From an uncultured Thermodesulfobacteriota bacterium (GTDB lineage Bacteria; Desulfobacterota; S145-22), in NCBI GenBank assembly GCA_964589315.1, contig CAZPTH010000001.1, forward strand, positions 1 through 44,505: a stretch of DNA of 44,505 bases, read 5' to 3'. Below are positions 966 through 44,505 of this stretch, one piece after another. Each line of letters begins with the position of its first letter. Within the stretch, counting starts at the first letter, position 1. The translations under genes and the position numbers were made by a program. The notes under the pieces are model-generated. The model saw nothing but the letters and a program-made list of their open reading frames with translations. It was not told where the DNA came from and did not search any database.

Positions 966-972
966 TTCCCCC

Positions 973-2007: not shown

Positions 2008-2119
2008 CGGGATTCCTTTCGTTTGCGGGTTTGGATAAATCATAACGCAACCCCCCGTTGAAATCAATCATTTCAACCAACCGATAGACGGGGAAGGCAT
2101 TCTTTCCCCCCCTCTCCGT

Positions 2120-21710: not shown

Positions 21711-21768
21711 TCGCGTGAAATTTTCATCTCTTTTACGAAAACCTTTTGCCTCCCCCACACACAAGATA

Positions 21769-27769: not shown

Positions 27770-27825
27770 GGTAAAAATTTAATAAAAATAAAGACTCCCG
27801 GAGAAGTAAACCTCCTCCGGGAGTC
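27770..27825 (-). terminator. rho-independent terminator closing the catabolic operon
   Basis: 11-bp perfect stem GACTCCCGGAG / CTCCGGGAGTC (27793-27825) with a 10-nt loop. On the minus strand it is followed by TTTATTTTTATT. It begins 7 nt after the stop of the last operon gene. Confidence 0.75.
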
Positions 27826-27831
27826 CTGTTG

Positions 27832-28410
27832 CTATCTCAATCCGTCTTCACACTTGGCCTCTTCCTTCTTCAGGCCGCCAACCCTCGCCAGGGGGCGTCC
27901 CGAATCGGTAACCACCAGGGCGACAACGATTTCATCGTTGCGCGGGGCGTCCGGCACCCGGATCTCCATGGCATCGAAATGAGACCTGACAAAGGCGGCA
28001 TCCTTGAAATGCAGGGGAACATCGAGGGTAACTCCGGGTCCCCCCATCTTCTTGGCCGAAGGAATAATCGCCTTCCCTCCTCCCAGGGCCTCGCGGAAGG
28101 GTTTTCCCAGTTTTGGATGGAGGATGGCCGCGGCGTGTTCAAGTTCGCCATCCAGACCGACGATGGCGCCCTTTCCATAGCTCTCGGACTTCTCCTTTGG
28201 AATTCCCAGGGCCTTCACAGCCAGTTCGCCCAGCATACTTCCCAACTGTTCGCCGATGTCCATCAAATCGGAAAGGTCCTCCTGGTATTTTCCCGCAAAG
28301 GGATTCTTGAGCACGACAATGGCCGCCGCCTTCCGGTGCGGCGGATCAACCTTCTGCCCCATCTCTTCCCGAATCTCCTCAACGACCGTGAACATTTTAC
28401 GAATCTCCAT
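27832..28410 (-). CDS. AA_synth (PF06684, 'amino acid synthesis', DUF1185) family protein, function unknown
   Basis: MEIRKMFTVVEE...VVLKNPFAGKYQEDLS...YGKGAIVGLDGELEHAAAILHPKLG...IPSAKKMGGPG...LHFKDAAFVRSHFDAMEIRVPDAPRNDEIVVALVVTDSGRP. This matches my memory of the family consensus very closely. Confidence 0.75.
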   Translation of the reverse strand: MEIRKMFTVVEEIREEMGQKVDPPHRKAAAIVVLKNPFAGKYQEDLSDLMDIGEQLGSMLGELAVKALGIPKEKSESYGKGAIVGLDGELEHAAAILHPKLGKPFREALGGGKAIIPSAKKMGGPGVTLDVPLHFKDAAFVRSHFDAMEIRVPDAPRNDEIVVALVVTDSGRPLARVGGLKKEEAKCEDGLR

Positions 28411-28429
28411 GACACGTACCTCCTTTTAT

Positions 28430-29317
28430 TTATTTGAAGTTAACAATTCCTCCAGCCAATTCCACGGCTTCACCCTGGAGATAGATCCCTGTCGCCCAGA
28501 CGATCCCATCCCCACTCAGGGCCGAGGCTACGGCACTTCCGTTTCGCAGGGCTCGCCGTTTCTCCGTCTCATCAAGCAGACCGCATGAAACCGTCACCGG
28601 CACGTCCGGGATGTCTGTCATGGGATCTATTTCAGAAGCCCTTTTTCTCACAACCTTTTTACCACAATCGCACGTGACATGATTCCCGATGTGGGTTGCC
28701 GCGGCATCGGCAATCGCTGCCGAAGGAGCCACCACGACAACGGCATCCGCGAACCCCTGACTGAAGCTCCTGCCCCGCCAGCCACTCGTCGCGACACCGA
28801 AGGGGTTATCCCTCTCCAGGACTTCCAGCTCCCTCATCGGTCCCTTGGCCCCTGCTGTGCCTCGAATTCCCACGCGCACCGGTTCACACGGGGAATAAAG
28901 AGCCATGTCCCCGCCATTGTTCACCAGGATCTTTAACATCTCAGGCCCCATGACCTCCCGCACTTCCAAGAGGATTTCATCGGCAACCGCGCCAGCCACG
29001 GCGGCCATGGGGGTCAAATCTCCTGATACCTTCCGAACCGCTTCGACCATCCTTCGAACCACCCGGGGCCACCGTGCCTTGACCCGCAAATCCCTTCCAG
29101 GCATCCGCAAGACGGGTTGAAACCCCTGGATTTCCCTTAACAGGGCCTTTGCCTTCTCAGGAATTTCCTCCGGGGCCTTCCGTAGCACTTTTTCCTCGCC
29201 TTCAAGCTGGACCCCGATTTCCATGGGGCCATGGGAAACCTGCACATGGGCCACCCTGAATCTCGGGATGTCTCCCGGCAAACCACGACACGGGGTCATA
29301 ACGCTGGAAAAGGTCAC
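28430..29317 (-). CDS. UPF0280 / ApbE-like superfamily protein, cytoplasmic (no signal peptide)
   Basis: Its motifs line up with the canonical ApbE in this same window. PMAAVAGAVADE corresponds to GGIAKGFAVD. VNNGGDMALYS corresponds to INAGGDLYVSG. GVATSGWRGRSFSQG corresponds to AIATSGDYENYF. ADAAATHIGN corresponds to DADALATALF. Confidence 0.7.
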   Translation of the reverse strand: MTFSSVMTPCRGLPGDIPRFRVAHVQVSHGPMEIGVQLEGEEKVLRKAPEEIPEKAKALLREIQGFQPVLRMPGRDLRVKARWPRVVRRMVEAVRKVSGDLTPMAAVAGAVADEILLEVREVMGPEMLKILVNNGGDMALYSPCEPVRVGIRGTAGAKGPMRELEVLERDNPFGVATSGWRGRSFSQGFADAVVVVAPSAAIADAAATHIGNHVTCDCGKKVVRKRASEIDPMTDIPDVPVTVSCGLLDETEKRRALRNGSAVASALSGDGIVWATGIYLQGEAVELAGGIVNFK

Positions 29318-29332
29318 ACCAATACCCCCAGT

Positions 29333-30859
29333 CTACGGCTGGCTTGCCCCGCCCAGCCACTTCATGAGGTCCTCAAGGTCCATCAACGCGTCCACGTACC
29401 CGCCCATTTCCTCGTAATCCTGAAGGGTCATGGTAAATTCGAGGGGTGCCACGGTAGCCGGCGTGGGAACCCAGGAAAAGGCCCCCACCTTGACCTCCGC
29501 CACATCCACCATAAAGGTGATTCCCCCGCCGGGGAAGATAAAGGGCGTGGCTCCACCCACCGTCAGTTTCGCCTTCCTCGCGTGGACGGCTTCGGTCAAT
29601 TTCACAGGATAGAGAACCACACTGACTCGCGCGCTTCCACCACATCCCCCTACGTAGACCGCCGAGACCAGGGAACGCTGGCTCGTCCTTCGAATCTGCT
29701 CCACGGCATGGCGGGCCTTCTCCGTCAACGGGATTTCCTCGAAATCTCTACCTCCCCGCCACCGCACCAGCTTTGCCTTCTGGCCCGTGGTTTCCGTAAA
29801 GAGGATGGTCATTCCCACCTTTCCCCTCTTCGGGTCGATCTCCTTTATCAGGGAAACAGGGTCCGTGATCGATGTCCCCCCCCACCCTTTGCCGTGGTCC
29901 CCGAAATACCTGCCCGGCGTGCTCTTCTGGAATATTAACTGGACGCCGCTGAACGGGATCCCCAGGTATCTTCCGGCGGTATGTTCCGTAAAGACCCCCG
30001 TGACATGGGAATCGATGACAATGACCTCATCGGCCGCGTCCCGGAAATGGGGGGCAAACAGCCCCATGGAGGCGCTTCCGCACCCCACGCGCATCTTCTC
30101 GATGACCCGCCCGTCGATGACGGGGGGATCTCCCACCTTCAACCTCAGCTCCGCACCGTCCTTGACCTTCAGATCGACTTCCTTCCGGTTGGCTATATCG
30201 GCAACCACCCGGGCGACAATGAAGCCATCCTTTCCCGTCAGGAGGTTTGCCCCCCCGAGGGAGAGCATCTTTGACCCATATTCCTCCGTCGTAACATGGC
30301 CGACCTTGTGACGTCCCCGGTAAACCGCGGCGCCTTCCTCCCCGATGACTTCATCCGTATCTATCTTGACCTTGACACCGCTGTAACTCAGGGGGGCCTC
30401 GGTCACGGCCGTAACCACATCCACCCCATCAACCTCTCCCTTCACAATAAAGGGCGCCGGACGGTAATCGGGATAGGTGGTTCCGGCGCCGATGCCGGTA
30501 ATAAGAGGGGTCTGAATCTCCTTCGAACAGAGGGGTTTGAGAAGTCCGGCCACGTCATCAAAGGTATGGAGGCGGGTCGCCCTGACTTTCTGGCCATCTT
30601 TATTGATAAACCTGCGGCACGCGCCCGTCTTTCCCGGCGGTATCCGACATCCAATCGGGCAGGCGTCACACTGGATCGTGCCCTCCGGAAGACGCTCCTC
30701 TTCCGTGATGGCCCCCGCGGGACAAACCTTCACACAGGCCTGGCAGTCGACACATCCCCGCGAAATGGTGGCAATCTTCTCCTGAAGGGAAACGAGTTCC
30801 AGGGGGCAAACCTCGACGCAGAAACCGCACCCTTTGCACTTTTCCGGGTCGATCCTCAC
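29333..30859 (-). CDS. 6-hydroxynicotinate reductase (Hnr)-like iron-sulfur protein
   Basis: 12 Cys in the first 81 residues: CKGCGFCVEVCP, CVDCQACVKVCP (two 4Fe-4S ferredoxin motifs) and CDACPIGCx9C. A C-terminal domain of about 425 aa follows. Family assignment is from memory of Hnr-type annotations plus adjacency to the enamidase homolog. Confidence 0.65.
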   Translation of the reverse strand: MRIDPEKCKGCGFCVEVCPLELVSLQEKIATISRGCVDCQACVKVCPAGAITEEERLPEGTIQCDACPIGCRIPPGKTGACRRFINKDGQKVRATRLHTFDDVAGLLKPLCSKEIQTPLITGIGAGTTYPDYRPAPFIVKGEVDGVDVVTAVTEAPLSYSGVKVKIDTDEVIGEEGAAVYRGRHKVGHVTTEEYGSKMLSLGGANLLTGKDGFIVARVVADIANRKEVDLKVKDGAELRLKVGDPPVIDGRVIEKMRVGCGSASMGLFAPHFRDAADEVIVIDSHVTGVFTEHTAGRYLGIPFSGVQLIFQKSTPGRYFGDHGKGWGGTSITDPVSLIKEIDPKRGKVGMTILFTETTGQKAKLVRWRGGRDFEEIPLTEKARHAVEQIRRTSQRSLVSAVYVGGCGGSARVSVVLYPVKLTEAVHARKAKLTVGGATPFIFPGGGITFMVDVAEVKVGAFSWVPTPATVAPLEFTMTLQDYEEMGGYVDALMDLEDLMKWLGGASQP

Positions 30860-30871
30860 GGGTGCACCCTT

Positions 30872-32023
30872 TTACAGGGTCGCGGCGCGCTTCGGAGGCG
30901 GCGTGTTCCGGCTCTTCTGGACCTTGATCTCCCCGTCAACAATAACCTTGGAAACGCCCGGGATATCCCCTGCGGCAAGGGCGGACAGGGCATCCTCCCC
31001 CACGGATCCCATGGGGGCGTCCATGATGACAAGGTCAGCCGCCTTCCCTGGTTCAATGAAACCGCTGTCCAGCTTGTGGACACGCGCCGTATTCCCCGAT
31101 GCCATACAGACAGCGATCTCGGGCGGGATATCGCCGATGGACGCAATCATGTTCAAGACCCTCAAGATACCCAGGGGGACCACGCCCGTGCCCGATGGAT
31201 GGTCATTGCCGATCACGACACGGTGATAGGCGTTTTTCTCTCGGGTCAGGCGACAGACCTCCAGAATCATCTTGGGATTGCCGCAATGGGAGATCTCGTA
31301 AGTAAGCTCCGTTTCCATTACGATCTTTCGGGCCTCTTCCGGGGAGACCGACGTGGGTCCCCCATTCAGGTGGGAAACCACATCCGGGTTGGTGGCAATA
31401 ACCTGGTCCGCCGTCACGACGGAGCTTCCGGGGATGGAAGTTCCCCCTGTGTGCATCATGACGGTCATCCCGTATTTCTTGGCCCATTTCACCATGGGAG
31501 CTGCCTCTTCCGGTTTCTTGACCTTACCCAGGCCGATTTCACCCACGGTCTTGACCCCTTCCCTCGCCATCTCGGCAAAGTCCTCTTCTGTCAACCCCGG
31601 CTCGAGAATCAGCCCGCCTCCTCGGACCTTCATGCCCCCCGGCCGGAAATTATCAAACGCCTTGGCGGCAAGGATGGCCAGGGCCTTGACCCCGGCGGCG
31701 TCCCTGGGACGTCCCTGGAGATGGACTTCCCCCGCGGAAATCACCTGGGTCACGCCCCCATGCAGTTCACTTTCGAGAAAATCGAGCATCCGCTGACGCG
31801 GCGTGAAATCCCCAAGGACCACGTGACAGTGAGAGTCGATCAGGCCGGGGGTAACGGTGGTTCCCTGCGCGTCCACGATGACATCCACACCCTCTGCCGA
31901 CAGGTTTGACCCCACGGCTTCAATCTTTCCGTCCGATACAAGGATCGAGTCCGCGTCCAGGATCGGATCGGACACATTCCCGGAAACAAGCGTTCCGATA
32001 TTCCGAATAAGCATCTTTCCCAT
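30872..32023 (-). CDS. enamidase-like amidohydrolase (1,4,5,6-tetrahydro-6-oxonicotinate hydrolase homolog)
   Basis: Amidohydrolase metal ligands are present: DSHCHV, MHTGGTSIPGSS, VSHLNGGPT, GNDHPSGTG. The whole-length pattern (IRNIGTLVSG..., TVTPGLIDSH, PRDAAGVKALA, AAGDIPG..., KSRNTPPPKRAA) closely matches the Eubacterium barkeri enamidase as I remember it. Confidence 0.8.
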   Translation of the reverse strand: MGKMLIRNIGTLVSGNVSDPILDADSILVSDGKIEAVGSNLSAEGVDVIVDAQGTTVTPGLIDSHCHVVLGDFTPRQRMLDFLESELHGGVTQVISAGEVHLQGRPRDAAGVKALAILAAKAFDNFRPGGMKVRGGGLILEPGLTEEDFAEMAREGVKTVGEIGLGKVKKPEEAAPMVKWAKKYGMTVMMHTGGTSIPGSSVVTADQVIATNPDVVSHLNGGPTSVSPEEARKIVMETELTYEISHCGNPKMILEVCRLTREKNAYHRVVIGNDHPSGTGVVPLGILRVLNMIASIGDIPPEIAVCMASGNTARVHKLDSGFIEPGKAADLVIMDAPMGSVGEDALSALAAGDIPGVSKVIVDGEIKVQKSRNTPPPKRAATL

Positions 32024-32057
32024 GTCACACCTCCAAGCTGTTTAAGGGTTCAATCTT

Positions 32058-34340
32058 TTACAAGGTTTTATCCTGTTCACTACCCTCTTCCCGGGAAATC
32101 AATCCACGTATCGTCTCCAGGTCGGCCGGAATCCGGTTGACCCAGCAGCCCGTGGCGTTATGAATGGCATTCAGGATGGCCGGGGCCGTTGGAATCAGGG
32201 CTGGCTCCCCTACCCCCTTTGCGCCAAAGGGGCCGGTCGGCTCGGGAACCTCCACGATAACCGGCTTGACCTCCGGGACGTCCATAGCCGTGGGAATGAG
32301 GTAGGTATCGAAGGAATGCGTCTTCCCCGGGAAAAACTGTTCGAACAGCCCCATTCCGATTCCCATGGCAACCCCGCTGAAGATCTGCCCCTCAACATTG
32401 GCGGGGTTGACGGCCTTTCCCACGTCGTGGGCGCTCACGGTCTTCACGACACGGACCTGACCCGTCACCAGATCGGTTTCGACGAGGCTTACCTGCGAGG
32501 CGAAGGCATACGTCGTATAGGGAACCCCCTGCCCCGTCTCCGGGTCGAGGGCGGTCGTCTCCGGGTTGAAGACCCCTTCTCCCCGGAGGGTCTCGCCTGG
32601 CTCAAGCACCCGCTTCACGACCGTCTCGAGAGAGAGTTTCTGGAACTCACGGTACTGTGGAAAGAAAAATCCCCCCTCGCATACCACGAGATTCGCCGGG
32701 ACGCCGAAAAGCCTGGCTGCCCTCTCCGTAAGTTTCTTCCTGACCTCCAAGGCGGCCTCATAGACCGCGCGTCCCGAGATATAGGTCTGCCGGGAGGCGG
32801 AGGTGGCTCCGGCATCCGTCGTCAGGGTTGTATCCGCGCGAACGAGGCGAATCTTCTCGAAGGGGAGGCCAAGGGTCTCCGCCGCGATCTGCACGAGGAC
32901 CGTGTCGGAGCCCTGTCCGATATCCGCGGCCCCGGTGAAAAGGGTCACCGTCCCTTCCGCGTCCACTTCCATCTGGGCACTGGAGGGATTGGGATGCCCT
33001 GTATTTCCAATCCCGTACCACATGGAAGCCACCCCCACGCCATACTTCAGGCCGGACATGCCCGAAATCTGCCTGGCCGCGGCTTCTCGAGACAACTCTT
33101 CGTAATGGGGGCGGATAGCCTTGAGGGTCTCCCGTATGCCCACGCTGGCCTTCAGTGTCTGGCCCGTCGGCGTAACGGATCCCGTCCTGAAGGCGTTCAT
33201 CATGCGAAAGGTAATGGGATCAAACCCAAGGCGATCGGCCAGTTTGTCCATCTGGGACTCGTGGGCAATGGAAATCTGGGGAACCCCAAAGCCACGCATG
33301 GCCCCCGACCAGTTGTTATTCGTGTAAACTGCCCTGCTCACCACGGCTACATTGGGAACCTCGTAAGGCCCCGTGGCGTGGACCGCCGCCCGGGTCGCCA
33401 CCGCGATTCCATAGGATCCGTACGCCCCCGTATCCGCGATAATCTCGGCTTCCATCGCCGTGAGCCTGCCGTCACGCGTTGCCCCCGTCTTCATGCGAAT
33501 CTTCAGGGGATGGCGCTTCGCCGTGGCCTCGAAGGATTCCTCCCGGCTGTAGACCATTCGGACCGGTCGGTCCAGATAATAGGCGGCCAGGGCCAGGAAA
33601 GGCTGCACGGAAATGTCCAGTTTTCCCCCGAATCCGCCCCCGGTCTCCGTCTGGATAACCCGGACCTTTTCCGGAGGCAAACCCAGGATGGAAACCAGCT
33701 GGGCCTGATCCGAGTGGGGGTTCTGCGTGGTCACCAGGATCACCACGCACCCGTCGTCGTCCCGGTAGGCCACCCCCACCTCCGGTTCAATGTAGGCGTG
33801 CTCCAGCATGTTGGTCTCGTACTCTTCCTCGATAACGATATCCGCTTCGGCGAAACCCTTTTCCACATCGCCCTTGACGACCCGCCGTTCGAAGAGGAGG
33901 TTGCCTTTTTCATGAATAGGGGATGCCTCTTGCTTCAGGGCTTCGGTCGGATCAAAAACGGCGGGCAGTGGCTCGATTTCCACCTCAATGGCCTCGAAGG
34001 CGCGCTCCGCGCTCTCCTCATCCTCCGCCGCAACAAGGACGATGGGATCTCCCACGAACCGGACCTTTTCCCCGGCCAGGACCGTCTGATCCCGGTTGAT
34101 GATCCCGTAGAGATTCTCCCCCGGGATGTCTTTCGCAGTAAAAATCCTCACAACCCCCGGGAGGGCTTCCGCCTTTTGAGTGTCTATCCCCCGGATGATT
34201 CCATGGGCTATCGGGCTTCTGTAAACCTTGAGGCTCAAGGCATCCGGGATTTCAAGGTCGGCCGCATACCTGGCCCTTCCCGTCACCTTGTCCCGAATCC
34301 CGACACGCTCAACCCGCTTTCCTACAACCTTGGTAATCAT
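32058..34340 (-). CDS. molybdopterin-binding large subunit of a xanthine-dehydrogenase-family hydroxylase (nicotinate dehydrogenase-like, unsplit)
   Basis: 760 aa. It has the aldehyde oxidase/XDH a/b-hammerhead domain and Moco-binding domains (GGGFGGK, catalytic Glu context GAKGVGEP). No CODH VAYRCSFR loop is present. Confidence 0.9.
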   Translation of the reverse strand: MITKVVGKRVERVGIRDKVTGRARYAADLEIPDALSLKVYRSPIAHGIIRGIDTQKAEALPGVVRIFTAKDIPGENLYGIINRDQTVLAGEKVRFVGDPIVLVAAEDEESAERAFEAIEVEIEPLPAVFDPTEALKQEASPIHEKGNLLFERRVVKGDVEKGFAEADIVIEEEYETNMLEHAYIEPEVGVAYRDDDGCVVILVTTQNPHSDQAQLVSILGLPPEKVRVIQTETGGGFGGKLDISVQPFLALAAYYLDRPVRMVYSREESFEATAKRHPLKIRMKTGATRDGRLTAMEAEIIADTGAYGSYGIAVATRAAVHATGPYEVPNVAVVSRAVYTNNNWSGAMRGFGVPQISIAHESQMDKLADRLGFDPITFRMMNAFRTGSVTPTGQTLKASVGIRETLKAIRPHYEELSREAAARQISGMSGLKYGVGVASMWYGIGNTGHPNPSSAQMEVDAEGTVTLFTGAADIGQGSDTVLVQIAAETLGLPFEKIRLVRADTTLTTDAGATSASRQTYISGRAVYEAALEVRKKLTERAARLFGVPANLVVCEGGFFFPQYREFQKLSLETVVKRVLEPGETLRGEGVFNPETTALDPETGQGVPYTTYAFASQVSLVETDLVTGQVRVVKTVSAHDVGKAVNPANVEGQIFSGVAMGIGMGLFEQFFPGKTHSFDTYLIPTAMDVPEVKPVIVEVPEPTGPFGAKGVGEPALIPTAPAILNAIHNATGCWVNRIPADLETIRGLISREEGSEQDKTL

Positions 34341-34349
34341 TTCAACCCC

Positions 34350-35228
34350 CTACCCTTTTTCGACCGCCAGGCGCACGGCCCGCATGACCAGATCTCCCAC
34401 AACGGGCTTCTTGTAGGCCGTGGAAGACCTCAGGCCGCTCAGCGCAACCATCTGCTCGGCAGCCGCTCGCCCCGCATTTTTGAGGACGGAATCGGAAAAC
34501 GGCTGGCCCTCCAGGGCCTTCTCCGCCTCCGTCATCCTGACCGGACGTGGCGTGGACGACCCCACACAGAGACGCGCCCACTCAAAGACCTCTTTCTGCC
34601 GGTTGTAATAGAGCATGCAGGCGAGATTCATCCGCGCAATGGCCACCGCCCGCCGCCGGGCCAGTTTCAGAAAAACAGACCGACCGGAAGGGGGAGGCAG
34701 AGGGACAATGATCCCCGTTAACAGCTCATCCGGTGAAATCACGGTCTCGTAAGGCCCCTTGAAAAAGTCGGTGACGGGCAGGGTTCGGTCTCCCTCTGGG
34801 CCCGTCAGCGTCAGCCGGGCCTCCAGGATAACCAGGGCCGGGATGGTATCCGCGGCGGGCGAGGCATTCACGATATTTCCCCCCAGGGTTCCAAGATTCC
34901 TGATCTGTGGAGACCCTACCGCCCGTGCCGCTTCCGAAAGCACGCCCACATATTCCCGAACCAGGTCGGAGGCCGCCAGCATGGCATGAGTCACCATGGG
35001 CCCGATTCGGATCTCGTTTCCCATCCGCTCAATCCGCGTAAGGGAGGAAATGCGTGAAACATCCACGACCAGGTCCGGAACGACGGCCTTTTCCCGAAGC
35101 TGTACCATCAGGTCGGTTCCCCCCGCCAGAACCCTGGCTTTCTTTCCCTGTTCCGTGGCAAGGTGGAGGGCTTCCACGGCCTCTCGAACCGTCTTCGGCA
35201 TCAGGTATCGAAATTCGGGATAGCTCAT
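34350..35228 (-). CDS. FAD-binding medium subunit of the molybdenum hydroxylase (CoxM/XdhB/NdhF-like)
   Basis: VLAGGTDLMVQL and GTLGGNIVNASPAADT (FAD_binding_5), plus a CO-dehydrogenase flavoprotein C-terminal domain. It has only 2 Cys, so there is no extra FeS insertion. A 4-nt ATGA overlap links it to the upstream gene. Confidence 0.88.
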   Translation of the reverse strand: MSYPEFRYLMPKTVREAVEALHLATEQGKKARVLAGGTDLMVQLREKAVVPDLVVDVSRISSLTRIERMGNEIRIGPMVTHAMLAASDLVREYVGVLSEAARAVGSPQIRNLGTLGGNIVNASPAADTIPALVILEARLTLTGPEGDRTLPVTDFFKGPYETVISPDELLTGIIVPLPPPSGRSVFLKLARRRAVAIARMNLACMLYYNRQKEVFEWARLCVGSSTPRPVRMTEAEKALEGQPFSDSVLKNAGRAAAEQMVALSGLRSSTAYKKPVVGDLVMRAVRLAVEKG

Positions 35229-35725
35229 GATCCTTCCTCCATTCCCCGTTCTGCCACTGATTCGATGGCGTCCACGATCTGCTGATATCCCGTGCAGCGG
35301 CAGAGGTTCCCGGCAATCCCCTCTCGAATCTCCAGCCGTGTGGGATGGGGGTTTTCATCCAGCAGGGCCTTTGCTGACAGAATCATTCCGGGCGTGCAGA
35401 ATCCGCACTGAACGGCACCATGGGCGATAAAGGCCTCCTGGAGGGGATGGAGGCGTTCCCCGTCTTCAAGCCCTTCAATCGTGGTAATCGTTGCCCCATC
35501 CATCTTTGGAGCCAGGACCATGCAGGCATTGACTGCCTTTCCATTCATAATGACGGTACAGGCGCCGCACTCGCCGATTCCGCACCCCTCTTTGACCCCC
35601 GTGAGATGCAGGTCTTCCCGTAAAATGGAAAGCATGGTCCGGTTGGCCGGTGTCCTCAGAACAATCGAGGCCCCGTTGACCACCATTGAGATTTCAACGA
35701 TTTCTTCACCCAGTTTTTCTTCCAT
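35225..35725 (-). CDS. [2Fe-2S]-binding small subunit of the molybdenum hydroxylase (CoxS/NdhS-like)
   Basis: Cluster motifs: GCGIGECGACTV and CGFCTPGMIL...NLCRCTGY. Confidence 0.92.
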   Translation of the reverse strand: MEEKLGEEIVEISMVVNGASIVLRTPANRTMLSILREDLHLTGVKEGCGIGECGACTVIMNGKAVNACMVLAPKMDGATITTIEGLEDGERLHPLQEAFIAHGAVQCGFCTPGMILSAKALLDENPHPTRLEIREGIAGNLCRCTGYQQIVDAIESVAERGMEEGS

Positions 35726-35735
35726 TGTTAACCCC

Positions 35736-37670
35736 TTACGTTATGGAAAGAACCGCCTTGTAGGCATCGTGAATGGCATAGTAAATCGTCCTCGGTTCCT
35801 TGGCGTCTCCGATCACGAAGAGGCGATTCGCCTTTCCCTTCAGCCGCCTTCGCAGAATTGCCTGGGCGTGGTTTCCCATGGCCAGGACGATCTTGGTTGG
35901 CTTCACCATGAACTTCTTTCCCTCGCCATCGGCCAGAATGGCCCCCTCCGGGGTAATCTCCCTGAGAGACATCCTCAGGAAGACCTGGAGCTTTTCACGC
36001 GCCATCCGTTTTAAGAGGTCCATCCGGGAAATCTCCTCCAGGTCTCCGGCAAGACGGTCTTCTTTTTCAATCAGGATCACCCGGTTCCCCAGGGACTTCA
36101 GGAATAAGGCCAGTTCACACCCCGTGACACCCCCGCCAACCACCAGGACATCCTCGTCTCCCTTGGGGCAATGCCCATCGAGACACTGCACGGGAGTGAT
36201 AATCCGTTCATCCTTGATCCCTGGAAGAATGGGGATGGAAGGAACAGAGCCCGTGGCGATAACGACCACGTCGAGAGGTGTCTCCGGATTCTGGGGATCG
36301 AACTCTGTGCCCAATCTCACATCCACATTTGATTTCTCCAACTGCTGCTCAAAGAATCGCAACAGGTCGTTGATCCGGTGCTTCGTCGGCATGGAAGCAA
36401 AGAGCCGAAGCTGCCCCCCAATCCATGGATTCTTCTCGAAAAGAACCACCTGATGGCCTATTTTGTCCGCCTGGAGGGCGGCGGTAATCCCGGCGGGCCC
36501 TGCCCCGACTACTGTGACATGCCGTGACGAGGCAGGTTTTTTCCTCTTTCCAAGGCGGTTCTCACGCCCTACCTCCGGGTTGATGGAACACCCGATATAG
36601 TCGGTCAGGCGGTTCCCCAGGCAACCCTCATTACAGGAGATACAGTAGCGAATCTCTTCCGTCCGGCCCTCTTTCGTTTTCTTCGGCCATTCCGGATCCG
36701 CGATCAGGGCGCGTCCCAGGGCCACGAAATCTGCATCTCCCCGGGAGATAATCCCTTCTACCGTATCCGGATACCGAATATTCCCCACTGTGATGACCGG
36801 GATGGAAACAACCTCCTTGATTCCCTTGGCAAGATACACGCGCCAGCCTTCCTTGTAACTCATCGGCTCCAGGATCGTCATGAGACTCTCATAGATTCCC
36901 GCCGAGACGTGCAGGGCATCCACTCCGGCCTCTTCCAGGCGCGCAGCGATTCGCTTGCTCTCCTCCAGCTTGATTCCTCCCTCGACAAATTCCTCAGCGC
37001 TGAGTCGAAACAAGATGGGATAATCCTCTCCGACCGCCGCGCGAATCTTTTCGATGATGCGAAGGGGAAATCGCATCCTTCCCTCGAAATCGCCCCCGTA
37101 GGCATCCTCTCGATGATTCGTATATGGTGACATGAACTGTCCGATAAGATACCCGTGCGCCCCGTGTAATTCGATCCCGTCAAAACCCGCCTTTTTTGCC
37201 CTTTCAGCCGCTTTCACAAATCGGTTCTCTATCTCCTCAATCTCGTCCAGCATGAGGGCCCTTGGCTTTTCCTTGAGATGTTTACAGGGAATGGCCGAGG
37301 GGGCTACAGGCTGAAGTCCCCCCGTAAACTCCCGGGTGGTCTGGCGGCCAGCATGGTGGAGTTGCAGAATGGCCGGAACCTGGTGCTTGTGGATGGCAAA
37401 GGCCAGGCGCTTCAGCCCGGGCAAGAATCTGTCATCCGAAACACACAACTGCCGGACGGTATGTTTTCCCCGCGGTCCCTCCACCTGGCTGTTTTCCACA
37501 ATGATCATTCCCACGCCACCCCTGGCGCGCATCTCGTAATAGGCGAGCATCTTTTCGGAAACCTTACCCTCGTAGTCGGCAAAGTTCGTATCCACGGGTG
37601 CCATCACGAGGCGATTCGATAGCACCAGAGTGCCTATTTTCCCTTCAGAAAAAATGGAAGGATAGTTCAC
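35736..37670 (-). CDS. Old-Yellow-Enzyme-like FMN / [4Fe-4S] / FAD-NAD(P)H oxidoreductase (2-enoate reductase / 2,4-dienoyl-CoA reductase family)
   Basis: N-terminal OYE TIM barrel (LVMAPVDTNF, LQLHHAGRQ, GFDGIELHGAHGYLIGQFMSP). FeS motif CISCNEGCLGNRLTDYIGC. Two Rossmann folds (VTVVGAGPAGITAAL and VLVVGGGVTGCELAL). Confidence 0.88.
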   Translation of the reverse strand: MNYPSIFSEGKIGTLVLSNRLVMAPVDTNFADYEGKVSEKMLAYYEMRARGGVGMIIVENSQVEGPRGKHTVRQLCVSDDRFLPGLKRLAFAIHKHQVPAILQLHHAGRQTTREFTGGLQPVAPSAIPCKHLKEKPRALMLDEIEEIENRFVKAAERAKKAGFDGIELHGAHGYLIGQFMSPYTNHREDAYGGDFEGRMRFPLRIIEKIRAAVGEDYPILFRLSAEEFVEGGIKLEESKRIAARLEEAGVDALHVSAGIYESLMTILEPMSYKEGWRVYLAKGIKEVVSIPVITVGNIRYPDTVEGIISRGDADFVALGRALIADPEWPKKTKEGRTEEIRYCISCNEGCLGNRLTDYIGCSINPEVGRENRLGKRKKPASSRHVTVVGAGPAGITAALQADKIGHQVVLFEKNPWIGGQLRLFASMPTKHRINDLLRFFEQQLEKSNVDVRLGTEFDPQNPETPLDVVVIATGSVPSIPILPGIKDERIITPVQCLDGHCPKGDEDVLVVGGGVTGCELALFLKSLGNRVILIEKEDRLAGDLEEISRMDLLKRMAREKLQVFLRMSLREITPEGAILADGEGKKFMVKPTKIVLAMGNHAQAILRRRLKGKANRLFVIGDAKEPRTIYYAIHDAYKAVLSIT

Positions 37671-37804
37671 AGTCCTCTCCTTTTTTCAGGCCTAAAGGCC
37701 TTTTTTCTATCTTCACCCTCACCATGGAGGGGTTCAAACTCCTTGCCTTACCCCACGGACGGCTGCCCCTCAAAAGTCCCCTCTTCCGTCCAATCAAGAT
37801 TCCC

Positions 37805-39043
37805 TTAACGCTTCGTCCACGCGCGCATGGGATAAACAGGGGCCGCCCCGCGCCCCTTTCCCGGAAATACACTCACAACCTTGCCTTCCTGAACCTGGGC
37901 TACAACGGGTGAACAGGATGCACAGGCCCCGTCTTTACTGAAGCTCACCTTGCCATAGAAGGTCTCAACATGAATGGCACGAAGCTTCCCCAACAGGGCC
38001 TCTCGCCCCGCCTCATCAAAAGGCGGCTGTAATTTTAATGCTTCAAGGGCAAGCTGCTGGATCACGGCCGCCGCCGCGGCCGCCGCTTCGACATAGTCCG
38101 GGTGACGATTGTATTCCTTGAAATACGCCTTATCAAAGTCTGCCGCCGTCCCAAAAACCGGCCCTTTCCCCGGAGAGCGTGGCGTCCATTCAGCAGGTGC
38201 AAAAACATCGTCCGCATCTTTACCCAGTGATTTTACAAACTCTGCAGACGTGGGACCATAACTGAAAATCACCGCCTTCGGCGTAAAACCCGTCTCCTTC
38301 ATGGCCTTAACTATTTTAATAGCCATGGAAGTTTGAGAGCTCACGAACAGGACATCGGGGTTTTTCATTTTTATCTTCAGAAGCATAGAGCTGTAATTTT
38401 CGATCTGGACGGGAAAAAGTTCAAAATGCTCGATTGTGAAGCCCGCCATTTTTGAATACTTCCTGAACCCATCACACGCCGATGAGCCAAAAGCGGTATC
38501 GGGTCCGATTATCGCGACCGTCCCGGGCTTCGGGTTAAGGGCCTTGAGCATTTTAACACAACCCTGGATCTGTTCAGTCTCTTTGCTGAGAGTGGAGAAA
38601 AGAGATGTGAACCCCTGTTCAAAGAGTTTATCACTGCTAACTCCGCCAGAAATCATGGGAAACCTGTATTTCTCCGCTATGGCACCGGCCGCGGAGACCT
38701 GGGCATTCCCGATCCCCCCAAGGAGCAGATCTACCCCGTCAACAGTGACAAGCTTTTCGGTAAGTTTGGCACTCATTTCGGGATTGCCTTCGTCATCGTA
38801 AAAAACAAGTTCCACAGGATAGCGTTTTCCCTTGATAAGAAGCCCCCCCTGCGAATTCAATTTCTTTGCCCAGAACTTATAGGAATCCAGAACGCGCAGC
38901 CCGGTCTCAGCGAGCTCTCCCGTCAAGGGGAGTGAAAAGCCAAAGCTGATTTTATCCGCGCTGTAAGACCCATGCGGAAATACCAGGCCCCCAGCTAAAC
39001 AGACAATTATTAAAATAACCGGGAATTTTCCCAACCCTCTCAT
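37805..39043 (-). CDS. secreted Peripla_BP_6 (LivJ-like) solute-binding protein with no cognate ABC permease or ATPase in the window
   Basis: Signal peptide MRGLGKFPVILIIVCLAGGLVFPHGSYSA. This is followed by ISFGFSLPLTGELAETG...YDDEGNPE...DLLLGG, which is typical of cluster-4 branched-chain/aromatic-acid binding proteins. Confidence 0.85.
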   Translation of the reverse strand: MRGLGKFPVILIIVCLAGGLVFPHGSYSADKISFGFSLPLTGELAETGLRVLDSYKFWAKKLNSQGGLLIKGKRYPVELVFYDDEGNPEMSAKLTEKLVTVDGVDLLLGGIGNAQVSAAGAIAEKYRFPMISGGVSSDKLFEQGFTSLFSTLSKETEQIQGCVKMLKALNPKPGTVAIIGPDTAFGSSACDGFRKYSKMAGFTIEHFELFPVQIENYSSMLLKIKMKNPDVLFVSSQTSMAIKIVKAMKETGFTPKAVIFSYGPTSAEFVKSLGKDADDVFAPAEWTPRSPGKGPVFGTAADFDKAYFKEYNRHPDYVEAAAAAAAVIQQLALEALKLQPPFDEAGREALLGKLRAIHVETFYGKVSFSKDGACASCSPVVAQVQEGKVVSVFPGKGRGAAPVYPMRAWTKR

Positions 39044-39154: not shown

Positions 39155-39703
39155 TCAAAAGGTAGGGGGACTTACCACCCAGGCAACTACGGTCATCTTG
39201 TCGCTCTTATTTGCAAACCCATGGGGACGAACGGACGAAAAATAGAAACTGTCCCCCTCTTCAAGTTTGTAAGTTTTCCCCTCAACGGTCAATTCCATCT
39301 CCCCCGACAGAATGAGGCCAAATTCCTCCCCGATATGGGAATAAAGCCCCGAAGACCCTCCGCCAGGCTCAATGGTCGTGTAAAAGGCAACCATTCGCTT
39401 GTTCTTGGCGTTTTTAACCATGGACTGGATATGGGTCTTTCCCCCATCCTTAAAATCGATATCGATTCGCTCGTCCTTTCTCACAACGATGGGGTCTTCC
39501 TGAGCCTGGTCGATAAAAAAATCAATAATCTGAACATTGAAAACAGACGCAATCTTTTTGAGGGTAGCGATGGAAGGATTGGCATTTCCATTTTCAAGCT
39601 GGGAAATGTAAGATTCGGTGCAGCCCGCCTTCTGGGCAACCTGCTTCAGCGTCAGGCGATTCGCTTTTCTGAACTCCCTCAATTTCTTACCGATTATTTC
39701 CAT
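39155..39703 (-). CDS. XRE-family HTH transcriptional regulator with a C-terminal cupin domain
   Basis: HTH_3 domain: LREFRKANRLTLKQVAQKAGCTESYISQLENGNANPSIATLKKIASVF. Cupin_2 domain: HIGEEFGLILSGEMELTVEGKTYKLEEGDSFYF...PHGF. Confidence 0.88.
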   Translation of the reverse strand: MEIIGKKLREFRKANRLTLKQVAQKAGCTESYISQLENGNANPSIATLKKIASVFNVQIIDFFIDQAQEDPIVVRKDERIDIDFKDGGKTHIQSMVKNAKNKRMVAFYTTIEPGGGSSGLYSHIGEEFGLILSGEMELTVEGKTYKLEEGDSFYFSSVRPHGFANKSDKMTVVAWVVSPPTF

Positions 39704-39857: not shown

Positions 39858-40529
39858 CTACGCGTCCAGATCGATTAAACCGATGCGGGCCGCGTATCGA
39901 ATCAGCTCAACCGTTCTATGGATCCCCAGTTTGTTCATGATATTGGCGCGATGATTATCCACCGTCTTTTTACTGATGAAGAGCTTTTCAGAAATCTCTT
40001 TTGTTGTAAGTCCCTCGGCAACGAGCCGCATAATCTCCTGTTCCCTTTTCGTCAAACGCTTGTAGGCGACATCAATCATCTTGGGAGCCCCCAAGATGGT
40101 CCCCATGAGATTTTCAGTAATTTCTCTGGAAAGAGAGGGATCCAGAAAATAGCGCCCCCGGGAAATCGCATCCAGCCCCTCGAGGAGAATGTCTGAAGTG
40201 GACTCCTTGACAAGGTATCCCGAGGCCCCGTTCCGCATGGCCTCGGTCACGTAATAAATTTTCGTATGCATACTCACGATGAGAATCCTGCACTCAGGAT
40301 GCACCTTCAGGGCCTCCCGGGTTAACTCGATGCCATTCCTGTCGGGAAGGGAGATATCCACAATCATAAAATCGGGGGTTAGTTTACTCACGAGCTTCAG
40401 GGCCTCCGCAGTCGATCCTGCCTCTCCGATAACCTCGTAACGGGAATCCCGAGAAAGGATACTTTTGAGCCCCAACCGGAACAGGGGATGGTCATCAACA
40501 ATCACGACCGTCTGTCTATCGCGCGTCAT
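39858..40529 (-). CDS. NarL/FixJ-family response regulator (REC + LuxR HTH)
   Basis: VVIVDDHPLFRLGLKSIL, MIVDISLPDRNG, and the LuxR HTH LTKREQEIMRLVAEGLTTKEISEKLFISKKTVDNHRANIMNKLG. Start set at ATG 40529, forming an ATGA overlap with the kinase stop. Confidence 0.9.
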   Translation of the reverse strand: MTRDRQTVVIVDDHPLFRLGLKSILSRDSRYEVIGEAGSTAEALKLVSKLTPDFMIVDISLPDRNGIELTREALKVHPECRILIVSMHTKIYYVTEAMRNGASGYLVKESTSDILLEGLDAISRGRYFLDPSLSREITENLMGTILGAPKMIDVAYKRLTKREQEIMRLVAEGLTTKEISEKLFISKKTVDNHRANIMNKLGIHRTVELIRYAARIGLIDLDA

Positions 40530-42658
40530 CCCGCTTTCTCCGGATTGATTGGGACTTTCACGAGGATTTTCGTCCCCGTGCCCTGTTGGGACTGAATCTG
40601 GATTTCTCCTCCCAGGAGCCTCGCCCTTTCCTGCATCCCCTGCAGTCCCATGCATTTCCTGGATAAAAGTTCATCGAACGACTCGGGGATCTGGAATCCT
40701 TCACCGTCGTCCTCCACCCTGAGAATGATATGGGGATGGGAGGCCACCAGCCGAACCTTGACGTGTTTCGCCCCGGCGTGTTTACGGATATTGTTCAGGG
40801 CCTCCTGGACGATACGGTAGAGATTGATCTGGAGGGTAAAATCCGGCTCCGTCTCCTCAACTCCCGCCGAAAGAAAATCGACCTCGATCCCATATTTTTC
40901 CCTGAATTCCTGGCAGAATGAATAAATGGCATGGGTAATACCCATCTTCTCAAAATGCGGGGGGCGAAGGTCATAGGACAGGTGGCGGATCTGCTCGACG
41001 GACTTTCGCAGGGTCCGCGAGAGTTCTTCAAACCGTGGCATGATTTCCGGGTACTTCCCGGCATACTCGTCCAGGAGGATGTTGCAGTCGATGAGGGCGC
41101 TGGAGAGATTCTGTGCCACGGTATCATGCAGGTATCGCGAGATGCGCAAACGTTCGATCTCCTCCGCCTCCGTGAGCCGCTTGTTCAGGGAAAAGATAAG
41201 CGCCTCGGCATTCTTGAAGTCGGAGACATCCAGGGCAAACCCGATGATCCCGATGATCTTTCCATTGATATCCCGGTAGGGAATCTTGTCGATCACCAGC
41301 CATTTTGGGACATTGTTGACCACCACCTTGGTGACGGTCTGGTGTTTCGCCCGTCCCGTCTTCATGATGAGCTCGTCCTCACGGGTAAATTCCTCCGCGC
41401 TGTAAACTCCAAACCCCAGGTCGAAGTAGGTTGCCCCCTTCAATGCCTCCTTTTTCTTGCCAAAAAAGTCCGAAAAGGCCTTGTTGACACGCAGAAACCT
41501 GTGTCGGGTATCCTTGTAAAAAATGGCGGCGGGAACGGAATCCAGGATAATCTCCAGCTCGTTGACGAGCGAGTCAATCTTTTCCCGTGCCGCTTCATAC
41601 TGGGCTATTTTCCGGGTGAGCTGCCGGTTTATTTTGTCAAGCCGAGCGGTTCGTTCCTTAACCTTTCTCTCCAGGTCTTCATTTTGTCTGCGGATAAGCT
41701 CTTCATACTGTTTCCGCCTCGTGATGTCGTGGGCAATCCCCTCGACCGCAACGACCTTTCCGTCTTCATGCTCAATAGAAATTTCCTGGACCTCCAGCGT
41801 GACGATCTCCCCGTTCTTACAAATCACCTCCACCTCATAGGGGGCTTGCCGGATCCCTCTGATGCTCAACTGGGTTGACTTTTCCGCCTTTTTATTAATG
41901 GGACTGTCCGTCAAATATTTGGTAACCGGCCCCAGAAATTCCCCGGGATCATATCCCAGAACATTTTTCACGGAATCGCTGACCTGGGTAAAGATTCCGT
42001 TCGTATCGTGACGATAAAAGAAATAGTCATCGCTCAACCTCTCGATGATCCGCTGCATCTTCCTCTCGCTGTTCTCGAGAGAATCACTCGCCTTTCGATG
42101 CTCCAGAACGTTGGCGATCATCTTGGCAACGATTTTTAAAAACGCGCCTTCCACCTGGGAAAGGGGCTCTCTCTTCTGAACCGTCCCGCAGCTCAAAAAA
42201 CCAAACGGGCCATCCCGACCGACAAGGGGAATCATGAATCCGTAACCGAGGCCCATTATCTCCAGCAGGTGCCTCTCCTGGGGAATCTCGGGCACAAGCA
42301 TCCCGATCCCAATCCCCTCCGAACCATTCGCAAGGTCATGCACCTTTTGGAACAGCCAGTTGTCACCCCTTTTTTCATACCCATGGATCTCGCCGAAGCC
42401 GGGAATACCGGACGTGCCGTTCAAGACGTGGGTTCTGAAAACCCTCCCCCCATCCATGGAAAAATGGAAAATCCCACAGAAATCGAAATCAACCGTTCTG
42501 GAAACCACGGTCAGGACATCAGAAATCTTTCCATCGATCTCTTCGTCATCGACGTTGATCAGGTCAATGGAAATGTTTGCGATGAGTCGCGCCAGGTCCT
42601 CGTGGGAACTGATGGAATAATCTCTCATAAATCGCACGCGCGTTGCATTAATAGACAT
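40526..42658 (-). CDS. cytoplasmic sensor histidine kinase (GAF - PAS - coiled coil - PAS - HisKA_3 - HATPase_c)
   Basis: H-box RYLHDTVAQNLSS, N-box EALNNIRKHAGA, and G-boxes DDGEGF and GLQGMQERARLLGGEI. I see no hydrophobic transmembrane segment. The start is ambiguous: ATG 42658 or TTG 42691. Confidence 0.88.
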   Translation of the reverse strand: MSINATRVRFMRDYSISSHEDLARLIANISIDLINVDDEEIDGKISDVLTVVSRTVDFDFCGIFHFSMDGGRVFRTHVLNGTSGIPGFGEIHGYEKRGDNWLFQKVHDLANGSEGIGIGMLVPEIPQERHLLEIMGLGYGFMIPLVGRDGPFGFLSCGTVQKREPLSQVEGAFLKIVAKMIANVLEHRKASDSLENSERKMQRIIERLSDDYFFYRHDTNGIFTQVSDSVKNVLGYDPGEFLGPVTKYLTDSPINKKAEKSTQLSIRGIRQAPYEVEVICKNGEIVTLEVQEISIEHEDGKVVAVEGIAHDITRRKQYEELIRRQNEDLERKVKERTARLDKINRQLTRKIAQYEAAREKIDSLVNELEIILDSVPAAIFYKDTRHRFLRVNKAFSDFFGKKKEALKGATYFDLGFGVYSAEEFTREDELIMKTGRAKHQTVTKVVVNNVPKWLVIDKIPYRDINGKIIGIIGFALDVSDFKNAEALIFSLNKRLTEAEEIERLRISRYLHDTVAQNLSSALIDCNILLDEYAGKYPEIMPRFEELSRTLRKSVEQIRHLSYDLRPPHFEKMGITHAIYSFCQEFREKYGIEVDFLSAGVEETEPDFTLQINLYRIVQEALNNIRKHAGAKHVKVRLVASHPHIILRVEDDGEGFQIPESFDELLSRKCMGLQGMQERARLLGGEIQIQSQQGTGTKILVKVPINPEKAG

Positions 42659-42716
42659 GGATAACCATTTTTCAAAGATTAACAGAAACAAGCTTCAAGC
42701 ACAACGTTTCCCGTCG

Positions 42717-44015: not shown

Positions 44016-44037
44016 GAAGCCGACCCGGCATCCGACA

Positions 44038-44505
44038 TCATGTCTCGTCCTTTCTCAAAAAGATGATGATCCCCACCACGAGAAAGAGAATCGATACGAT
44101 GGGGATAAGTAATTTAAAGGGATAGATCGGGATTCTAAAGGCCCCGGAGGATCTCTCGTGCATCCTCAGAGAATTTAACCCCATCCAGATTGTCTGCCAG
44201 ACGAGAACGCCGGTGAATATCATAAACGAGATGAGCGTGATAATTTTCGAAATCACCTTCATCCATGGGGGAAAGTGATCGTAAAAGATTTCTATGCGAA
44301 TATGTTTGTTCTCGGACATGGCCAGCACGCCGGCGAAGAGAATGAAGACCCCGAAAATGATGCGGTTCGACAGCCATGTCCAGATGAGGGGGTGATTGAA
44401 GACATATCGGGCGATAACCCCCACGGTGGTAATCACCATGAGAACAAAGACCAGGATACTCATGGCCACGCAGATTTTTCTGTTAAAGGCCAAAAAACGT
44501 TTCAA
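44038..44505 (-). CDS. dctQ: TRAP transporter small permease subunit (the 5' end may be cut by the window edge)
   Basis: Four hydrophobic helices and VIARYVFNHPLIWTWLSNRIIFGV, typical of DctQ. It lies directly upstream of dctM. The reading frame is open to the last base of the window. Confidence 0.85.
   Translation of the reverse strand: MKRFLAFNRKICVAMSILVFVLMVITTVGVIARYVFNHPLIWTWLSNRIIFGVFILFAGVLAMSENKHIRIEIFYDHFPPWMKVISKIITLISFMIFTGVLVWQTIWMGLNSLRMHERSSGAFRIPIYPFKLLIPIVSILFLVVGIIIFLRKDET

Follow-up and report, generated by a model that had tools for sequence, protein, structure and literature searches.

The closest described systems to the locus reported here are the nicotinate (nic) cluster of Eubacterium barkeri and the nic clusters of Proteobacteria. 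The genes for the first three enzymes of the pathway are reportedly present in nine Proteobacteria. A cluster made up of the first three steps, an ATP-binding cassette (ABC) transporter and two conserved unknown proteins was described by Shettigar et al. 2012 (PMC3511419), and it is conserved in Azorhizobium caulinodans ORS571, Bradyrhizobium, Rhodopseudomonas palustris and strain SG-6C; the same authors, citing Kitts et al. 1992, note that A. caulinodans proceeds via glutarate. Here we analyse a stretch of 44,505 bp (hereafter the window), which is an entire contig (CAZPTH010000001.1) of a metagenome-assembled genome (MAG), and we report that a minus-strand operon of eight genes, running from position 37670 down to 27832, is probably a nicotinate catabolic operon of the THON type, that is, one that would proceed via 1,4,5,6-tetrahydro-6-oxonicotinate (THON).

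The enamidases of the window and of E. barkeri were aligned and used to scan one genome per GTDB species, which yielded 80 loci, designated below by L numbers where they have to be told apart. The delta-type set comprises 44 loci with the window (43 related loci) and the Bacillota set 25, and the E. barkeri cluster was itself recovered among the 80 as L036 (NZ_FNOU01000012, strain VPI 5359). The orthologues of ndhS/F/L/M, hnr and ena, which encode a molybdenum (Mo) hydroxylase, the 6-hydroxynicotinate reductase (Hnr) and the enamidase (Ena), are common to the E. barkeri cluster and the window, and in both a UPF0280 gene directly follows hnr. The AA_synth gene comes after ena in E. barkeri and after the UPF0280 gene in the window, where the NdhL and NdhM equivalents are, in addition, fused. 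The regulator is an XRE-cupin protein in the window and a LysR protein in E. barkeri, and the uptake gene codes for a leucine/isoleucine/valine (LIV)-type binding protein in the former and for an EIIC-like permease in the latter. In contrast to E. barkeri, the window has no hgd, hmd, mgm, mgmL, mii, dmdAB or dml, and it has an extra gene for an Old Yellow Enzyme (OYE)/[4Fe-4S]/FAD reductase, which the E. barkeri cluster lacks. The features of the locus, in the direction of transcription, are as follows.

39155-39703, minus strand: XRE-HTH + cupin regulator (Pfam HTH_3 and Cupin_2)
37805-39043, minus strand: secreted LIV-type (Peripla_BP_6) binding protein (Pfam, 5e-50), with a signal-peptide-like N-terminus
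35736-37670, minus strand: OYE/[4Fe-4S]/FAD reductase, 644 aa (Pfam Oxidored_FMN and Pyr_redox_2), first gene of the operon
35225-35725, minus strand: 2x[2Fe-2S] hydroxylase subunit, NdhS equivalent (Pfam Fer2_2 and Fer2)
34350-35228, minus strand: FAD hydroxylase subunit, NdhF equivalent (Pfam FAD_binding_5 and CO_deh_flav_C)
32058-34340, minus strand: molybdopterin hydroxylase subunit, fused NdhL and NdhM equivalents, 760 aa (Pfam Ald_Xan_dh_C and MoCoBD_1/2)
30872-32023, minus strand: Ena orthologue, 383 aa (Pfam Amidohydro_1; PDB 2VUN)
29333-30859, minus strand: Hnr orthologue, 508 aa (N-terminal 2x[4Fe-4S], other Pfam domains none)
28430-29317, minus strand: UPF0280 protein, ApbE-like (PF27030 AbpE_bact), 295 aa (NCBIfam PRK04334, 7.6e-66)
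27832-28410, minus strand: AA_synth (PF06684/DUF1185) protein, 192 aa (Pfam, 1.7e-75), last gene of the operon
27791-27827, minus strand: intrinsic terminator (16-bp stem, 9 G-C pairs, 5-nt loop, T-run)

According to the list of open reading frames (ORFs), the eight genes are tightly packed, with junctions, in transcription order, of a 10-nt gap, a 4-nt overlap and gaps of 9, 34, 12, 15 and 19 nt, exactly as laid out in the first-pass annotation made from the sequence of the window. The strong terminator which that annotation placed at the end of the operon is by far the strongest terminator-like site of the region. The binding-protein gene, described there as secreted, does lie 134 nt upstream of the first operon gene, and its product begins with the signal-peptide-like sequence MRGLGKFPVILIIVCLAGGLVFPHGSYSA.

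The assignment of three functions to the first three nicotinate steps, also proposed at that stage, agrees with solved structures and with L036. The Ena protein matches the solved E. barkeri enamidase (PDB 2VUN) over residues 1-382 with 60% identity (E=9e-149), and the top PDB matches of the Mo subunit are 3HRD_A (1.2e-121) and 3HRD_B (1.2e-73), the respective large and medium subunits of nicotinate dehydrogenase from E. barkeri. When the window proteins were compared with L036 by tblastn, the identities were 50% for Hnr (full length), 60% for Ena, 48% for the Mo subunit, 52% for the FeS subunit and 32% for the FAD subunit. Pfam domains, PDB matches and these identities all relate the three-component Mo-hydroxylase to NdhFSLM, and both Hnr and Ena are orthologues of the THON-type enzymes. 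Specifically, the Cys motifs conserved in Hnr (2x CxxCxxCxxxC, C64/67/71/81 and C260) are in common with E. barkeri Hnr, and the protein has more than 7800 homologues, some of which are called 6-hydroxynicotinate reductase by their sources. The AlphaFold2 (AF2) model of Hnr is confident (pLDDT 91.4, pTM 0.86), the invariant loop PLITGIGAGTTYPD (residues 118-131) being its sole low-confidence internal stretch. A Foldseek search of this model against the PDB returned no relative beyond the N-terminal 2x[4Fe-4S] ferredoxin domain of ~55 residues, and the catalytic body of ~440 residues looks, in the model, like an unsolved fold. In conclusion, the locus carries every sequence-level feature of a THON-type upper module, two conserved accessory proteins included, and the operon is predicted to encode the upper anaerobic nicotinate module, namely Mo-hydroxylase, Hnr and enamidase.

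Gene identities, synteny and conservation are observed, whereas substrate and chemistry are inferred from the orthologous enzymes of E. barkeri. Nicotinate would be captured by the secreted LIV-type binding protein and then converted to 6-hydroxynicotinate by the three-subunit Mo-hydroxylase; Hnr would reduce the pyridone ring to THON, and the enamidase would open the ring and free ammonia, giving 2-formylglutarate.

The relatives of the locus fit this picture. The nearest loci (L001-L007, 87-95% identity) are Thermodesulfobacteriota MAGs, and in neighbour-joining trees the window Ena and Hnr fall within a large Thermodesulfobacteriota/'delta proteobacterium' group, apart from the Bacillota group. 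The anaerobic, non-clostridial host suggested earlier is in line with these placements, and on sequence grounds the uncultured, sulfate-reducer-like host appears to belong to an anaerobe-type, non-clostridial, Thermodesulfobacteriota-like lineage. Of the columns conserved to at least 95% across all other full clusters, the window clade retains 127/128 in Ena and 139/145 in Hnr. Because almost all of these columns are retained and both proteins are nested in the group, there is no sign of a change in Ena or Hnr function. A distinct clade of Ena-like and Hnr-like proteins with different neighbours, named at first reading as what would speak against a nicotinate cluster, is not what we found, the neighbours being the same.

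Some observations weigh against the nicotinate assignment. The Mo subunit is just ~48% identical to NdhL/M, so the substrate of the Mo-hydroxylase is deduced from its context; furthermore, no nicotinamidase gene was found in the window, no permease or ATPase genes follow the binding-protein gene in it, and no Aldedh-family gene occurs in its 44.5 kb. The low identity of the Mo subunit and the missing nicotinamidase could also suggest that the operon acts on another, isomeric or substituted, pyridine or N-heterocyclic carboxylate, the OYE reductase and a divergent binding protein adapting the module to it; the lineage-specificity of the extra reductase and the binding protein, which reaches just 55% identity even with its counterparts in loci whose Ena is 91-95% identical, point in the same direction. 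We consider such a change of substrate unlikely, as the conserved columns of Ena and Hnr are nearly all kept, the two proteins are nested in a nicotinamidase-carrying clade, locus L003 has a nicotinamidase gene (pncA) adjoining the same operon, and 3HRD is still the top solved match of the Mo subunit. More generally, 6 delta-type loci, one of them from a 90%-identical relative, and two further Hnr-seeded loci harbour a gene for nicotinamidase within the cluster, recognised by NCBIfam PRK11609 at 173.7 bits (cut-off 174). Because related clusters contain this gene, nicotinate or nicotinamide is supported as the substrate of a THON-type operon.

Three of the eight genes had been regarded in the first-pass annotation as unexplained extras. 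This holds for the OYE reductase, which is an addition; UPF0280 and AA_synth, on the contrary, are also found in the E. barkeri cluster and in alphaproteobacteria, and they are conserved accessory proteins of the pathway, not additions. As to how often, and in which phyla, the three genes accompany the upper module, a point raised in the same annotation, the OYE gene proved to be lineage-restricted, while UPF0280 and AA_synth recur in most of the 80 related loci and in several phyla; many of their absences in the survey are contig ends. The Hnr-seeded and UPF0280-seeded contexts show the same picture as the Ena-seeded ones, and in RefSeq, on an alphaproteobacterial plasmid, a 6-hydroxynicotinate reductase, a UPF0280 family protein and an amino acid synthesis family protein are encoded by adjacent genes.

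UPF0280 is the companion of hnr. It is present in 23/44 delta-type loci (window counted) and in 22/25 Bacillota loci, and it lies within 400 nt of hnr in 43/45 loci with both genes. In E. barkeri, the ORF directly 3' of hnr (L036, 3289-4161) is a UPF0280 homologue with 35% identity and a weak Pfam ApbE match, which is marginal for PF02424 (29.3 bits, cut-off 25.6). For the window protein, Pfam gave no match, so that it does not belong to PF02424 at its gathering score, and UPF0280 proteins are assigned to a separate Pfam family, PF27030. Structurally, the AF2 model (pLDDT 92.8) gave 32 Foldseek hits at E<1e-3, with DVU1097 (2O34, two chains) in first place and the other 30 all ApbE/Ftp/FmnB proteins (probability 1.0, template-modelling score 0.31-0.55), and it has the ApbE fold; the invariant UPF0280 residues include ApbE-like GGD and TSG...R motifs.

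Because of its constant adjacency to hnr and the covalent flavin that E. barkeri Hnr is said to carry, we propose that UPF0280 may mature Hnr or load flavin into it, a dedicated Hnr flavin-loading/maturation factor being its most likely role. Two points speak against this proposal. The ApbE acceptor motif [ST]GA[ST] was sought in the window and E. barkeri Hnr proteins and is absent from both, an invariant GAGTT loop standing in place of any such motif, so that what carries the flavin-transferase idea is fold and adjacency. In L003 (7362-9629), from an 85-90%-identical relative, AA_synth directly follows hnr with no UPF0280 gene between them. As a speculative suggestion, the Hnr loop 118-131 is a candidate flavin-acceptor site.

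A canonical ApbE flavin transferase gene (21670-22782, plus strand; Pfam ApbE, 1.7e-90) is found 5 kb from the operon, adjoining a Na/Ca-exchanger-family gene. It is syntenic in L002, L005 and L006, and its product is of a sequence class unrelated to that of the UPF0280 gene of the operon.

AA_synth, in turn, is the companion of the ring-opening hydrolase. The ORF directly 3' of ena in E. barkeri (L036, 11194-11775) is an AA_synth gene whose product is 60% identical to that of the window, and AA_synth is present in 30/44 delta-type loci (window counted) and in 24/25 Bacillota loci. Its PDB matches are 2QTP (3e-74) and 3BYQ, and its fold is Bacillus chorismate-mutase-like, with a function that is not known (PMC2954203). 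AA_synth accompanies Ena even in loci without Hnr or hydroxylase, in Mesorhizobium, Lachnospiraceae and Anaerotruncus. At the loci L070 and L072-L076 (Lachnospiraceae, Anaerotruncus) and L077-L080 (Mesorhizobium), the Ena homologues have two AA_synth tblastn matches nearby per locus and no Hnr or Mo-hydroxylase within 10 kb, the neighbours being short-chain dehydrogenase/reductase (SDR), ABC-transporter or Hmd-like genes; there, the Ena/AA_synth pair probably serves a different substrate.

A possible role for AA_synth is indicated by the trigonelline pathway, in which a hydrolase likewise frees an aminomethylene/2-formyl-dicarboxylate from the pyridine ring. TgnF (DUF1185) of Acinetobacter baylyi is placed downstream of that hydrolase, as AA_synth is downstream of Ena in the window, and it shares its Pfam family with AA_synth, a likeness at the level of family assignment. 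This homologue is reported to stimulate the succinate-semialdehyde dehydrogenase step (PMC7913881); the window, however, has no aldehyde dehydrogenase of the kind that TgnF is reported to act on. Since AA_synth tracks Ena, and by analogy with TgnF, we propose that it helps to hand the enamine/2-formyl-dicarboxylate product of the hydrolase to the next enzyme, the processing of the ring-opening product being, on this analogy, its most likely function. Against this proposal, the enamidase has been described as bifunctional by itself, so that such a role for AA_synth is not required.

Turning to the fate of the carbon, the E. barkeri proteins Hgd, Hmd, Mgm, MgmL, Mii, Dml and DmdAB, taken from L036, were used as tblastn queries. 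No match was obtained in the 44.5-kb window, which bears out the earlier remark that the downstream fermentation genes are missing from it, and a complete E. barkeri fermentation set (hgd, hmd, mgm/mgmL, mii, dmdAB and dml clustered) is not present. The window is one 44.5-kb MAG contig, with most of the genome beyond it, and it could be thought that the operon simply serves a fermentation of the E. barkeri type, with the lower-pathway genes at another place in the genome. We regard this as very improbable, since none of the 43 related delta-type loci has a match to a lower-pathway protein within 10 kb, as against 22/25 Bacillota loci in which these genes adjoin the upper ones; in addition, across 81 loci (window included), an aldehyde dehydrogenase occurs in 33, the B12 route in 23, and both in 0.

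This aldehyde dehydrogenase, of ~493 aa, emerged from the clustering of all locus ORFs and is found in 29/44 delta-type loci, in several of them directly 5' of the hydroxylase genes. Its top NCBIfam model is the CoA-acylating methylmalonate-semialdehyde dehydrogenase (MMSDH) TIGR01722, at 349 bits, under the cut-off of 448 bits. In 24 of the 25 full-length proteins, NGNGKN replaces the usual ELGGK general-base motif and GQRC is found at the catalytic cysteine, features that we take to be hallmarks of MMSDH. MMSDH-like dehydrogenases occur among the loci L008-L033, L047, L054, L056 and L063-L069 (for example, L030 4861-6342). Chemically, 2-formylglutarate is a malonate semialdehyde with a substituent at position 2, and in most related clusters the enzyme is predicted to convert it, in a reaction of the MMSDH type, to glutaryl-CoA, CO2 and NADH. 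Such a glutaryl-CoA exit would correspond, in anaerobic and CoA-linked form, to the glutarate route of Azorhizobium. In the Thermodesulfobacteriota clusters of this type (28 related delta-type loci, e.g. L017, L030, L032 and L063), the core order ndhS-F-LM, ena, hnr, UPF0280, AA_synth is the same as in the window, and they also have the XRE-cupin regulator and LIV-ABC or tripartite ATP-independent periplasmic (TRAP) uptake systems; they carry the CoA-acylating aldehyde dehydrogenase and sometimes pncA, whereas the window has neither and has the OYE gene instead.

Taken together, these data indicate that the carbon exit here is not the E. barkeri B12 route; the lack of the lower pathway extends across the phylum, where another exit has probably taken its place. 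The idea of an undescribed route, put forward at first reading, was overstated: the Azorhizobium/Bradyrhizobiaceae type, which goes via glutarate, is already described as having the upper module and no B12 route. The B12 route is absent from the proteobacterial nic cluster and from the window alike, and an exit via glutarate or glutaryl-CoA is expected; the two differ in their hosts, proteobacteria for the A. caulinodans-type cluster and an anaerobe-type Thermodesulfobacteriota for the window, and in that the former has an ABC transporter whereas the window holds only the binding protein of one. We conclude that the locus is a lineage-specific variant of a known cluster, whose upper-only architecture and two 'extra' genes were already described. 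What is new is the lineage-specific OYE gene in first position and the survey-level split between Bacillota with the B12 route and Thermodesulfobacteriota with the MMSDH-like dehydrogenase.

The window itself does not have the MMSDH-like dehydrogenase in its cluster, and no aldehyde dehydrogenase is within reach in any locus of its own lineage (L001-L007 and L081-L084). In the sister locus L029, the aldehyde dehydrogenase gene stands outside the core, upstream of the regulator.

The OYE reductase is the only addition to the module and is confined to the narrow lineage of the window. Pfam recognises Oxidored_FMN at residues 7-338 and Pyr_redox_2 at 384-606, and the protein combines an OYE barrel, four Cys and a C-terminal two-dinucleotide-binding domain; its CISCNEGC...GC sequence aligns with the cluster motif of FadH and 2-naphthoyl-CoA reductase (NCR). 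Its top PDB matches are NCR (6QKG, 4.6e-93) and FadH (1PS9), and it falls short of all NCBIfam equivalog cut-offs, by a wide margin in the case of BaiCD (509/793 bits), mycofactocin OYE (455/825) and bilirubin reductase (420/750). Domain architecture and cluster motif are thus shared with the FadH/NCR/2-enoate reductase class; in contrast, alignment shows that the window protein has the classical OYE His-x-x-His-Gly-Tyr site (LHGAHGYL), which neither FadH nor NCR has. Enzymes with such a site typically bind the carbonyl of an enone, enoate or lactam. Among 5.8 billion proteins searched, 16 clusters of OYE orthologues had 76-93% identity; identity then fell sharply to at most 50%, in more distant relatives from Bacillota and other groups that bear generic NADH oxidase/FAD-dependent oxidoreductase names. 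The orthologues, at least 77% identical, are in this operon in all 7 contexts recovered (four of them via two of the 16 clusters), and the gene is first in the operon wherever the upstream end is present in the lineage of the window, the exception being L003, which has pncA and no OYE gene.

Because Hnr and Ena are both retained, unchanged, the OYE gene is an add-on and not a replacement. A replacement of Hnr by the OYE reductase, or a change in the Ena substrate, was rejected as the default reading, both proteins being kept with their conserved positions essentially unchanged. The lineage of the window has gained the reductase as the first gene of the operon, in place of a nearby aldehyde dehydrogenase. 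An OYE enzyme of Aspergillus nidulans, HxnT, saturates a hydroxypyridine ring in nicotinate catabolism (PMC9304392); HxnT is a single-domain OYE of an aerobic fungal route, whereas the window protein is multidomain, with [4Fe-4S] and FAD. Our best guess is that the reductase ene-reduces a pathway intermediate, which could be the 6-hydroxynicotinate pyridone or an enoate derived from 2-formylglutarate; after this we rank a redox coupling of hydroxylase and Hnr, and, last, a role unrelated to the pathway. What tells against any firmer statement is that its nearest solved relatives act on CoA thioesters.

A bolder interpretation is that the OYE reductase defines a new reductive exit or bypass, reducing THON, the enamine or the 2-formylglutarate enol, and that neither the B12 nor the glutaryl-CoA route is used. 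The position of the gene at the head of the operon, recalling the aldehyde dehydrogenase that precedes the hydroxylase genes in several related clusters, would suit this interpretation, as would its constant presence in the contexts recovered, the lack of an aldehyde dehydrogenase within reach in the loci of the lineage, and an active site fitted to enones and enoates rather than of the FadH/NCR type. We nevertheless hold it to be doubtful, because the operon has no follow-up enzymes for such a product, the unchanged Ena speaks against a saturated lactam as substrate, and the aldehyde dehydrogenase may be elsewhere in the genome, as it is already outside the core in L029. Equally tentative is the joint proposal that the OYE reductase carries out an undescribed reductive step on the pyridone, THON, or the 2-formylglutarate enamine/enol, as a third exit, and that UPF0280 represents a new cytoplasmic class of Hnr-dedicated flavin-loading proteins. 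The reading that we prefer remains that of a THON-type operon to which one reductase has been added.

As regards uptake and regulation, the binding protein is 47-55% identical to those of related nic loci and, judging from its sequence and context, probably serves nicotinate uptake; the loci whose Ena is 91-95% identical are at the upper end of this range, at just 55%. In L083 (5408-9989), a full five-gene ABC transporter occupies the position of the binding-protein gene of the window. Many delta-type loci have LIV-type ABC or TRAP transporters together with the same XRE-cupin regulator, a homologue of which flanks the cluster in 21/44 of them, and the XRE-cupin protein is likely to be the regulator of the cluster in this phylum. 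No match to Rfam was found across the whole window at the gathering score, that is, no known riboswitch or leader RNA was detected.

Concerning the surroundings, one flank of the operon is housekeeping, with EF-G-like, birA and coaX genes and, at a greater distance, nusA, infB and pnp, and the other comprises the XRE-cupin regulator, a two-component system and a TRAP permease. The TRAP transporter at 42717-44505 was left out of the locus, its DctM being ~35% identical to nic-associated TRAP permeases. Between the nic regulator and this permease are genes for a LuxR-type response regulator and a PAS histidine kinase (39858-42691, minus strand); the listed ORFs overlap by 130 nt, so that at least one of the start codons is probably mis-set. 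Long antisense ORFs, e.g. 32160-34721 and 30296-31909 on the plus strand, were discarded as artefacts of GC-rich coding DNA opposite well-supported genes. Near an HtrA-like protease gene, an ORF of 401 aa (856-2061, plus strand) has no Pfam match at E<=1e-5.

Two alphaproteobacterial loci show a further arrangement of the same genes. L087 (Fuscovulum plasmid NZ_CP124537) and L088 (Mesorhizobium CP083956) have the Mo-hydroxylase, Hnr, UPF0280 and AA_synth genes, with no enamidase within ~9-12 kb of hnr and with genes for hydantoinase A/B (oxoprolinase-like) in the vicinity; neither locus showed the OYE gene. Such a gene set may point to another, ATP-dependent way of opening the lactam ring of THON.

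Niacin and nicotinamide are ubiquitous and, to our knowledge, the mineralisation of the pyridine ring by strict anaerobes outside clostridia has not been worked out at gene level. The present analysis provides a concrete gene set for Thermodesulfobacteriota, consisting of the upper module and an MMSDH-like dehydrogenase that would lead toward glutaryl-CoA, and it identifies one lineage in which the exit gene appears to be swapped for an OYE-type reductase. The two proteins to which published descriptions of the cluster gave no role prove to be the most constant partners, UPF0280 of Hnr and AA_synth/DUF1185 of the hydrolase. The big picture of nicotinate catabolism is left unchanged, and a known pathway family is refined; if the reductive step suggested for the OYE reductase were true, these uncultured Thermodesulfobacteriota would gain a third way out of the THON pathway.

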